Of a DNA stretch of 51,529 bases, positions 48,001 through 51,000 are shown piece by piece. This DNA comes from a virus. Lineage: Duplodnaviria > Heunggongvirae > Uroviricota > Caudoviricetes. The stretch lies in IMG/VR virus record IMGVR_UViG_2617270963_000008; one strand, 5' to 3'. The position numbers were made by a program. Each line of letters starts with the position of its first letter. Positions within the stretch are counted from its first letter, which is position 1.

Positions 48001-51000
48001 ACCTGGATACTCGAGCCGTGCCCAAACAGGATATAGCCACCGCTGGCTCCGCTACGACGTTCAACGATGGTGAATGAGGCTCTCAGCCAGTCAGGAAGAT
48101 GATCAAACGGTACAGCAATTTTGGTGCGGAAAATTTCACTGGCAGCCTGTTTATCCTGAGCGACAATCCCGCATTTGAGATGCGGTATGAATAATGCCTG
48201 GTCGAGAAGATAAATATCAATGGCCGTGGAAAACCCCAGCTGGCGTGCTTTCAGGATAATATTTTTATTGTGCATGCTCCGGAACAACTGGCGCTGCGCC
48301 GGTCGCATTCTGAAGGTGACCAGCTCACCTTTTTCGTTCTGTATCTTGTAGAGATGATTGAGCCGCCACCAGGGATTGCTCAGTTTAGTCATGATGAACA
48401 GACGTTGTTCGGCCTCTGTCATTTCTGACGGTTCATCACATCGCGGTTCATTCTTCCGGAATGTCATCCAGTCTCCCCGAATTACTCATTTCATGCAGCG
48501 ATGACACGATGTCACTGACAGGCGTAACAACGCCCCGACGCTGGCTGGTCAGAATATCGGTTTCCGCTCTGAGTTTATCTCTGGCAGCGTTGGTTCTTTC
48601 CCGGTCAGCACGAAGTTTTGGTGCTGTTTCAGCCAGAACGTCCAGCGTCAGCAATGAGCGTTCAATTGACTCGATACGGGCAATATTCCGGTCAAGAGCC
48701 TGTTCAGCTTTGAGTATTTTGTCGTACAGAGCAACGCGGGTTTCCACGTCAGCCGCCTCTTTCAGGTCGGCGAACATTTTTTTCAGTGTTCCTGTTACTG
48801 AAAGTGCGCGGGCCCGGGTAAACACCAGTTCATCGGCAAGTTCCATTCCGACTGCATCATCTATGAGGTTATCTGCCTCGAGATACTTCGCGTATCCACG
48901 GTGTCTGACGGCGTGGGTGTTACGCTGAGAAAAAGCATTTGAAGGTGGCAAAAGTCTGGAACCACGAGTCCGTTTCGTTTCTGCCAAATTTGCGCATTTT
49001 TCATCACAACCATCATCGCCTGAAGGCTCGTCATGACTGGAGTTGCCGTCAGATTTCTGCGCACTTTTTTGATCATCAATTTGCGCATTTTTCTGCGCAC
49101 TTTTCTCTGTATTTCTGGGGGAGTGTTTGCGCAGTTTAATGTACCGCCGAGCCGTGTCATAACTGATATTGTTCTGACGGCACCAGTCCTGAAGCTTTAT
49201 GCCGGTTTTGACATGTTCGCGTCGAAATGCCTGCTCCAGCTTTTTCCAGTCCAGCTTTGCCATGTCACCTTCTGACGTTCTCTGTTAAAAACTGATGCAC
49301 AATGACTGCTGTAAATTTTCAGATTTCACACAGCAGAGCCATGTCTGATTAATGTTTAACCTTATTTAGGTTATATCCGCTTCATTCCACTACAGCACCA
49401 GATAGGCTGCCTCGCGGATAAATGCCAAAGTCTCCTGATATAGAAACCCGTCGCCACATCGAGCGCTGATCAACATTTGTATATTCACTGCGACAGAAAG
49501 AATTTATTTTATTGAATAGTTAGAAATACAGAATTGCATGCTTTATAAGCATTGACGCACACTTCATTTTTAGCAATATATTCTGTTCTCATAGACGATC
49601 AGCCCTGCATGCACTGCCGGACACCGTCGGCAATTTTACAGACCTAAGAGGCAATACCAAAAAGCTAACGCGCTTTATCAAGACTTGAGCAACCAACCAA
49701 TAAAAAAAGCACCAGTACCGCTACCAATGCCCATTTCGTCGTTGTTCACAGCATTCTGTGTACCCACTGTATTTCGCGTCATATCACCACGTCAGACAAT
49801 CCTTAAGGATTACATAAGATTTACGCATAATAATGCCCATTTTCAACACAGACAAGGGAATTTATATGTTAAATCAAACGCTAACAAAATCTCTTCTTAT
49901 ATTTTTACTTGTCATAATCGTTTCTGTATCCATCATATACATTGTAAGAACTCCAGTCAGACTTGATGTGAACGATGTCACTGAGATTAACCAGAAACAT
50001 CCCATTATTTTTCTCATCCGGCATGGGGAAAGATGCGATCGCTCCCAAAGAATATGTCTTTCAGCACATGAGGGAATCACAGTAAACGGAGCTAACAAAG
50101 CTCAACAATATGGAGATAAATTCAGAAGAATGTTTCCATACTACAGTCTCTATTCTACAGACACACTCCGAACAATGCAGACAGCCACTTTTTTTTCGGG
50201 AGGTAAGACAGCAACTATTCCGGACATATCGACATGTGATGATAACGCAGTAAATAATATCCTTAAAATATCAAAATCAGATCATGTTACTGTGATTTTC
50301 ACACATAATCACTGTCTGTCCAGAATTGCAAAAAAAATGAATGGATGGAGATTTAAACCTGATTATATGGGCACACTGGTTCTGCATCGGGAAAATCACA
50401 ATCTGATTCTCGACGGACATTTAAAACCAAACGAGCTTACCCAGTGATCCATTTGTTGATAATGCACTGGCATTGATTCAGGTTATATCTCTCCTCATAA
50501 AAAAGGCCAGCGATTGAGCTGGCTCTGTTAATCGAGGCATTGCATCCTGATGTACTCCTGCAGGTAGTTAACCTGCGCGGTTATCTTGTCGATTCCACTT
50601 CGGAGACGGTAATAATTGAGTTCAGCATCTGCTGTAAGTCCTGAGCTTTCTCCATCGCCCATGCCGCTGGCTCCGGTCGTTGACTTTGCACAGGTGGCGG
50701 CGACTTGCAGGCGCTTACGCCCAGCAGAAACATCAGCACGGAGACTTTCAATAGTCGCGTTAGCATCAGCAAGCTCCCTGGTGTATCTGGCATCGAGTGC
50801 AGCAACATCACGCTGGCGCTGCTGTATGTCAGCAATGGTGGCGTTCGCCTGGCTGAGTTTTGTCTTCGCATCATCTCGCTGCTCTTTGTAGGTGATGGCG
50901 TTATCACGGTAATGGTCTGTTGCCAGCCACAGCGATCCACAACCAAGCAGCAGGACAATAAGCACGCCATACAGCACACGATTCATATCACCACCAACGG

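Follow-up and report, generated by a model that had tools for sequence, protein, structure and literature searches.

Introduction

Ais of Escherichia coli (b2252) and PmrG of Salmonella are the closest described relatives of the gene treated here, and PmrG is credited by later papers with the dephosphorylation of heptose II in the core of lipopolysaccharide (LPS) (Nishino 2006, as cited in PMC8129183; also PMC4312571). The closest described system with regard to position is the bor gene, which phage 933W carries between Rz and the small terminase gene terS, in an orientation opposite to the late genes. The DNA analysed in this work, hereafter called the window, is the whole stretch of 51,529 nucleotides of a tailed phage (Caudoviricetes) in IMG/VR virus record IMGVR_UViG_2617270963_000008, and the element in question is an Ais/PmrG-family histidine phosphatase gene that occupies this same Rz/terS interval, in the same orientation as bor, with a promoter region of its own. 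Taken as a whole, it is reasonably probable that the locus is a moron for an LPS-core phosphatase, driven by the host regulator BasR (PmrA) and carried in the bor slot.

As for the regulatory side, PmrA boxes are repeats bound head-to-tail over the −35 region of the promoter (PMC3973317, PMC4660055), with the −35 element at the first half-site (PMC4660055). Verified boxes include CTTAAG-N5-xTTAAT in Salmonella and CTTAAT-N5-CCTAAG at pbgP of Klebsiella pneumoniae (PMC3973317, PMC4660055), and the consensus against which the window was tested is YTTAAK-N5-YTTAAK, as defined in PMC3973317. At the K-12 arnB promoter the box reads CTTAAG-gttaa-GTTAAT and is followed after 10 nt by TAAAAT; this arrangement of box, 10-nt gap and TAnAAT was also found in Citrobacter, Salmonella and other Escherichia. 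The K-12 eptA promoter has the canonical box CTTAAG-gttgg-CTTAAT, with a less clear −10 hexamer.

Family, Catalytic Residues and Fold of the Phosphatase

First of all, the initial annotation, which had been made from the DNA alone, described the product as an Ais-like histidine phosphatase, and the protein comparisons bear this out. The protein, which is already named by PGAP, scores 28.7 bits on Pfam His_Phos_1 (PF00300, gathering cutoff 21.7) and 201.9 bits on the NCBIfam model NF011945, "LPS core heptose(II)-phosphate phosphatase" (cutoff 142), and BLASTP aligns it with K-12 Ais at 43% identity over 158 aa (E 7e-44). All three signature blocks fall into register in this alignment: IRHGERCDRS of the window protein with FRHAERCDRS of Ais, VIFTHNHCL with VIFTHNHCL, and FKPDY with FKPDY. 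The conservation of catalytic His and Arg residues, one of the points on which the first description was to stand or fall, was confirmed in 41 homologues, where R52, H53, E55, R56, C57, D58, R59, S60, C64, H147 and C150 are invariant, as is the RHG motif as a whole (R52-H53-G54), R102 and H149 are conserved in at least 90%, and four cysteines are conserved.

An AlphaFold2 model of the protein that was built from the alignment of these homologues (mean predicted local distance difference test score, pLDDT, 92.2) consists of a helix at residues 2–27 followed by an alpha/beta domain, and a Foldseek search of the PDB with it returned histidine phosphatases only, with probability 1.0, including the MutT1 C-terminal domain, phosphoserine phosphatase, RosC, SixA, PhoE and PGAM5. 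The predicted fold is thus the phosphoglycerate-mutase-like alpha/beta fold of the histidine phosphatases. A search of solved structures by sequence gave one marginal match, fructose-2,6-bisphosphatase, and no structure of Ais or PmrG is among those solved. Judging from the hydrophobic N-terminal helix, the product should be anchored in the membrane or exported through it, with the catalytic domain in the periplasm.

The ratio of nonsynonymous to synonymous substitution rates (dN/dS) is about 0.2 (0.17–0.25) against eight diverged alleles; therefore, the phosphatase gene is under purifying selection. Two starts were considered for the coding sequence (as shown in Table 1). The real one is most likely the ATG of the PGAP call, which gives 193 aa; the alternative annotated start was rejected, as it lies inside the −10 hexamer described below and is absent from the homologues L021 and L029 (L numbers designate the loci fetched for comparison).

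Promoter Region of the Phosphatase Gene

Upstream of the gene lies the direct repeat CTTAAG-gatta-CATAAG, whose first half-site is exact and whose second departs from YTTAAK at one position. The repeat stands over the −35 region, faces the gene and precedes the predicted −10 hexamer AATAAT by the same distance as the box at arnB. The repeat itself had been noticed before and compared tentatively with a PmrA box; it is present as described, and its interpretation as a putative PmrA/BasR box gains support from the homologues treated in the next section. In the region where a −35 hexamer would be expected, AGGATT is found and no usable −35 is present, and a promoter scan of the + strand upstream of the gene found no σ70 consensus promoter. 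A repeat of this kind is expected 0.10 times per window by chance, and the combination of the repeat with a −10 hexamer at 10 nt occurred in none of 100 shuffles.

Two further elements of the first description fared less well. The distance between the repeat and the −10 had been called short, a concern that arose from taking CATAAT (49826–49831) as the −10; this hexamer was set aside in favour of AATAAT, which the homologues retain at an unchanged spacing. In addition, a 12-bp palindrome, ATCCTTAAGGAT, does lie at 49799–49810 as had been stated, but its standing as a functional element was rejected: with 11 such palindromes in the window and 12.1 in shuffled sequence, their number does not exceed chance, and only the part CCTTAAGG is kept in the homologues.

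Conservation of the Box among Homologues

Nine distinct upstream regions, belonging to five lineages, share the arrangement xTTAAK-N5-yWTAAK, a gap of 10 nt and a −10 hexamer whose second base is A and whose sixth is T, the whole being located 64–71 nt before the ATG. The box reads CTTAAG-N5-CATAAG in L018/L019, CTTAAG-N5-CTTAAG in L021, CTTAAG-N5-TTTAAG in L031 and CTTAAG-N5-TTTAAT in L032, all with AATAAT as the −10; ATTAAT-N5-CATAAG in L029 (TATAAT); GTTAAG-N5-CTTAAT in L024 (TATATT); and ATTAAG-N5-TTTAAG in the plasmid locus L003 (AACAGT). Among them, L021, L031, L032 and L024 carry canonical versions of the box.

The flanks of these boxes are otherwise unalignable, and the box-bearing prophage and plasmid homologues are only 60–76% identical. 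The synonymous divergence (dS) between the window gene and the box-bearing alleles is 0.65–1.0 or saturated, so neutral upstream positions should have been randomised. When each upstream region was shuffled with its dinucleotide composition kept, the relaxed box appeared in 0.5–3.8% of the shuffles, and in 0.02–0.5% when the −10 was required as well. The strict consensus YTTAAK-N5-YTTAAK has 10 matches in the 657,592 nt of fetched loci, and 8 of the 10 lie upstream of these genes or at the arnB/eptA promoters.

As a separate observation, the box-bearing prophage in L031 also encodes an AraC-family (HTH_18) regulator (7103–7831, − strand), which is located upstream of the holin genes and about 2.5 kb from the phosphatase gene.

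Proposed Function and Mechanism

Since no usable −35 is present and a PmrA/BasR-type repeat covers the −35 region, transcription of the gene should depend on phosphorylated BasR. That is to say, phosphorylated BasR would bind the repeat and recruit RNA polymerase to AATAAT, with Fe3+, Al3+ and mild acid as the inducing signals that act through BasR; the transcript would start near 49841, a position inferred from the −10, and AAGGGA would serve as the ribosome-binding site of the ATG at 49866. The N-terminal helix would then anchor or export the product, and the catalytic domain in the periplasm would remove phosphate from the LPS inner core, the substrate being most likely heptose(II)-phosphate by analogy with PmrG. 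As a result, the negative charge of the lysogen surface would be lowered under the conditions that induce arn, eptA and ais, and the cassette would act as a lysogenic-conversion moron between the lysis and packaging modules.

Among the phenotypes that had been suggested at the outset, a change in polymyxin resistance is the least likely, because deletion of pmrG in a PmrA-constitutive E. coli left the resistance to polymyxin B unchanged (PMC8129183). Fe3+ tolerance, deoxycholate sensitivity and the LPS-core-dependent recognition by phages or pili are better candidates.

Distribution and the Mobile Clade

Among the 5426 complete E. coli genomes searched by megablast, 43 contain the 1264-bp stretch between terS and Rz at an identity of at least 99%; they are mostly O104:H4 with some bovine and porcine isolates, human isolates being included; the coding sequence is 99.3–100% identical across these carriers. 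Any relative at the nucleotide level was found in 83 of the 5426, and only one of 50,697 phage records, that of phage GER2, has the gene. Alleles of 60–85% identity, obtained from IMG/VR and assembly look-ups, are always found on the opposite strand in the interval that separates the lysis cassette from the small terminase gene, and this slot is occupied in at least five backbones, whose terminases are of lambda type (Nu1/gpA), DUF1441/gpA, Terminase_2/Terminase_6 or 933W type and whose lysis sets have GH108, M15 or lysozyme endolysins. The members on IncF plasmids are located between insertion sequence (IS) elements.

The family has further copies on mobile DNA. Clade members with 49–68% identity to the window protein (L117 2565–4082, L118 2419–3941 and L120 2514–4085) are linked to fimbriae, lying directly downstream of AraC-family or EAL-domain genes and beside chaperone-usher operons, and another member lies beside a SPATE autotransporter gene; the copies associated with fimbrial genes and SPATE islands have no box. 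An Ais-family copy with about 45% identity to the window protein occurs in about 1400 plasmid records, of which nearly all are conjugative; in the IncI-gamma/K1 plasmid NZ_CP024230.1 it is TraG (L125 2878–3462), flanked by traF and traH and a short way downstream of the PilV shufflon. The PilV shufflon adhesins recognise the LPS of the recipient. TraG is also present in pESBL, so that the O104:H4 background combines the prophage copy with a plasmid paralogue; in a transposon screen of pESBL, TraG was dispensable for conjugation (PMC4288162). In a neighbour-joining tree, the prophage, IncF and fimbrial copies form a mobile-element clade apart from chromosomal Ais/PmrG and from TraG.

A very widespread paralogue of 43% identity (P0036, in 817 blocks of the collection; L033/L034 4001–4582) has no PmrA box; its neighbours are two genes for alpha/beta hydrolases, one for an EAL-domain protein and one for a SPATE autotransporter.

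Weighing of the Proposed Reading and Its Alternatives

Several points weigh against a BasR-driven LPS-core phosphatase. The second base of half-site 2 in the window (CATAAG) is A, whereas verified boxes show T or C there. Half-site 1 has been lost (CCAAAAAG) in L122, which at 83% aa identity is the nearest relative that is not identical and which keeps an intact open reading frame (ORF); the box is therefore not indispensable. Moreover, because the upstream regions have a common origin, their concordance does not count in full as independent evidence. At the protein level, the PmrG equivalog model NF052369 gives 113.2 bits, below its cutoff of 170, and the window protein groups with the mobile-element clade, not with chromosomal Ais/PmrG, so its substrate could differ from that of PmrG. 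Finally, no results on the expression, binding or LPS effect of this gene were found in the searchable literature.

The alternative that survives best, which we nevertheless hold to be unlikely, accepts the family and changes the role: the enzyme would have a different phosphorylated target in the periplasm (lipid A, Kdo, Hep(I) or a molecule that is not part of LPS), or the protein would be an AfrS-like accessory factor that alters the expression or assembly of fimbriae and pili. Besides the equivalog score and the 43% identity to Ais, it draws on the grouping in the tree with copies downstream of AraC-family regulators beside chaperone-usher genes, on the presence of TraG beside the PilV shufflon, and on the label "transcriptional activator AfrS", which the source gives to a frameshifted prophage-type variant (as in L028; protein family P0066). 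This name is a lead only, and the word "activator" may describe what an envelope enzyme brings about indirectly. The fimbria-linked copies retain the catalytic residues and the predicted export helix, and are therefore enzyme-like rather than DNA-binding proteins; neither an AraC-type gene nor a chaperone-usher or other fimbrial operon adjoins the window copy, and a promoter of PmrA type suits LPS remodelling.

Somewhat more doubtful is a second alternative, in which the moron yields a working phosphatase but the TTAAG repeat does not function as a BasR site, the gene being expressed at a low constitutive level, silenced by H-NS, read from another promoter or controlled by another OmpR-family regulator such as QseB, a paralogue of PmrA. 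The imperfect half-site 2, the loss of the box in L122, the AT-rich DNA typical of H-NS targets and the box-less fimbrial and SPATE-island copies all speak for it. Against it stand the retention of the box with its 10-nt spacing across lineages of near-saturated synonymous divergence, the agreement of this spacing with that of arnB, the canonical box of the same type at eptA, and the outcome of the σ70 promoter scan.

Prophage Context and Mosaic Structure

The host prophage is a 933W-like prophage without stx, inserted in ynfG of an O104:H4-type E. coli chromosome, and it has an N4-gp56-type capsid, a terminase and portal of 933W type and, in place of stx, a SASA esterase gene downstream of Q. 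The last 3 kb of the window hold, in this order, terS, a spacer of 1.26 kb, Rz and the left end of an IS element, and the spacer contains one substantial ORF, which is the intact phosphatase gene (as shown in Table 1). The earlier description of the cassette as AT-rich, oppositely oriented to its neighbours and placed in the bor position holds: the guanine-plus-cytosine (GC) content is 32–41% over 49700–50500 against 50–55% in the flanks, the late genes terS and Rz are on the − strand, and bor of 933W has the same place and orientation. The gene thus has the marks of a moron, being an extra gene of deviant GC content between conserved modules, at a site where 933W carries bor.

Table 1. Features of the phosphatase locus and its surroundings in the window.
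Feature	Position	Strand	Remarks
terS (small terminase subunit)	48448..49263	−	75% identical to 933W L0112; context gene
933W-type sequence upstream of terS	49264..49417	.	Backbone side of junction; pairwise BLAST
L33-like N-terminus remnant	49393–49476	−	
Mosaic segment like phage phiP27 L32/L33 region	49430..49769	.	About 80% identical; pairwise BLAST
Small lipoprotein gene remnant	49599..49814	−	Several stop codons; overlaps box region; intact homologue in L021
Cassette proper	49770–50527		Coding part 77% nt-identical to IncF-plasmid homologue; pairwise BLAST
PmrA/BasR-box-like direct repeat	49802..49818	+	CTTAAG-gatta-CATAAG; half-sites 49802–49807 and 49813–49818
AGGATT at would-be −35 position	49806–49811	+	No usable −35
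Predicted −10 hexamer AATAAT	49829..49834	+	Exactly 10 nt downstream of box
Alternative annotated start	49833	+	204 aa; rejected
Shine-Dalgarno AAGGGA	49854..49859	+	6 nt before ATG 49866; GGA core kept in homologues
Coding sequence, Ais/PmrG-family histidine phosphatase	49866..50447	+	193 aa
GC-rich hairpin GCCAGC-N6-GCTGGC	50506..50523	.	Between convergent phosphatase gene and Rz
Rz spanin (Phage_lysis, PF03245)	50528..50986	−	Context gene
IS orfA	51137–51463		
ALIL frameshift pseudoknot of IS element	51418–51529		

The phiP27-like segment, to which the L33-like remnant belongs, is gene debris, and it accompanies the phosphatase cassette in other prophages as well. In some of them a small lipoprotein gene is located just beyond the phosphatase gene; in L021 (596–853, − strand) it is intact, encoding 85 aa with the lipobox LLAGC (phrog_7528).

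That the gene is an inert hitch-hiker, moved about by lambdoid phage recombination and now without function in the lysogen, is very improbable: the decayed remnants around the cassette, the lysis region broken by an IS element at 51083 and the rarity of the allele (43 genomes, or 83 with any relative) would fit, but the ORF has remained intact, its catalytic residues are invariant and its dN/dS is about 0.2, the coding sequence is almost identical in human, bovine and porcine isolates, and homologues occupy this slot in many backbones.

Around the phosphatase gene, some other features were recorded. With its T6 tail, the hairpin between the gene and Rz forms a good intrinsic terminator on the − strand, its T tail on the + strand being weak. 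It lies directly after Rz and ahead of the packaging genes, so the late transcript has to continue past it, presumably with the help of antitermination by Q. The IS element, of the IS3 family (IS629/IS1203-like), is represented by its left end (51083–51529) and is inserted just upstream of Rz, within a 37-aa ORF. In the O104:H4 reference this ORF separates the lysozyme gene from Rz, and the prophage of the reference has no IS insertion at this site. The exact junction at 51083 is absent from all complete genomes of the collection, and the insertion probably uncouples Rz from the remaining lysis cassette. A search of 48900–51529 for known RNA families had the IS3 frameshift pseudoknot as its sole match.

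Novelty and Meaning

The enzyme family and the PmrA logic are already known, and the biology proposed here would not greatly surprise a specialist. In the searchable literature, no paper was found on a prophage-borne ais, on a distinct mobile Ais-like clade that recurs in the bor slot of lambdoid prophages, on a conserved PmrA-type class II promoter in the prophage and IncF-plasmid copies of this clade, or on the joint presence of the prophage copy and the plasmid copy (TraG) in O104:H4.

If BasR does drive the gene, an O104:H4-type lysogen would remodel its LPS core with an enzyme supplied by the phage under the envelope-stress programme of the host, which would be a clear and easily tested case of a moron that is connected to a two-component regulon of its host. 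Genes of prophages, plasmids and islands would then join the PmrA regulon of pathogenic E. coli, with implications for the tolerance of Fe3+ and acid within the gut, for phage adsorption that depends on the LPS core and for IncI pilus recognition. The redundancy within the Ais family may also explain the weak phenotype of single ais or pmrG deletions. A wider and rather doubtful extension is that the mobile clade of Ais-like, membrane-anchored phosphatases is a portable module for LPS-core remodelling, with its own PmrA/BasR promoter in the prophage and IncF copies, whose role would be to retune the inner-core phosphate for phages, conjugative pili and fimbriae (superinfection exclusion, control of mating or adhesion) rather than merely to increase metal or peptide resistance.

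Comparison with Known Systems

With bor of lambda and 933W (and with lom), the window gene shares the slot, the orientation opposite to the late operon, a surface-related product and, presumably, its production in the lysogen. The proteins are unrelated, Bor being a small outer-membrane lipoprotein whereas the window product is an enzyme, and the window cassette, unlike bor, carries a recognisable putative site for a host two-component regulator.

TraG of IncI1 and IncI-gamma plasmids and the fimbria-linked "AfrS"-type copies are likewise Ais-family paralogues on mobile elements that have kept the catalytic motifs, TraG at about 45% and the fimbria-linked copies at 49–68% identity to the window protein. 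They differ from it in that they are embedded in transfer or fimbrial operons and lack any PmrA box of their own.

Ais and PmrG agree with the window protein in the NF011945 subfamily, in the motifs RH(G/A)ERCDRS, THNHCL and KPDY, in the conserved cysteines, in approximate size, in a hydrophobic N-terminal segment as the putative export signal and in having a PmrA-type box associated with the gene. The window protein is set apart by its 43% identity and by 113 against 170 bits on the equivalog model, and its N-terminus resembles an uncleaved anchor, whereas that of Ais appears to be a signal peptide with an AXA-like site. The window gene is prophage-borne in the Rz/terS interval rather than divergent from arnB. 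The box belongs to the gene itself and faces it at the −35; chromosomal ais has only the shared, arnB-oriented box, about 190–330 bp upstream of the aligned coding region, and besides this one no dedicated PmrA box in the ais orientation was found for it.

As regards the promoter, the window differs from arnB and eptA in its second half-site, CATAAG, with A at position 2. It resembles arnB (pbgP/pmrH) in having a head-to-tail hexamer repeat of 11-bp period that covers the −35, lies 10 nt from the −10 and faces the gene, and eptA (pmrC) has a canonical box of the same type.

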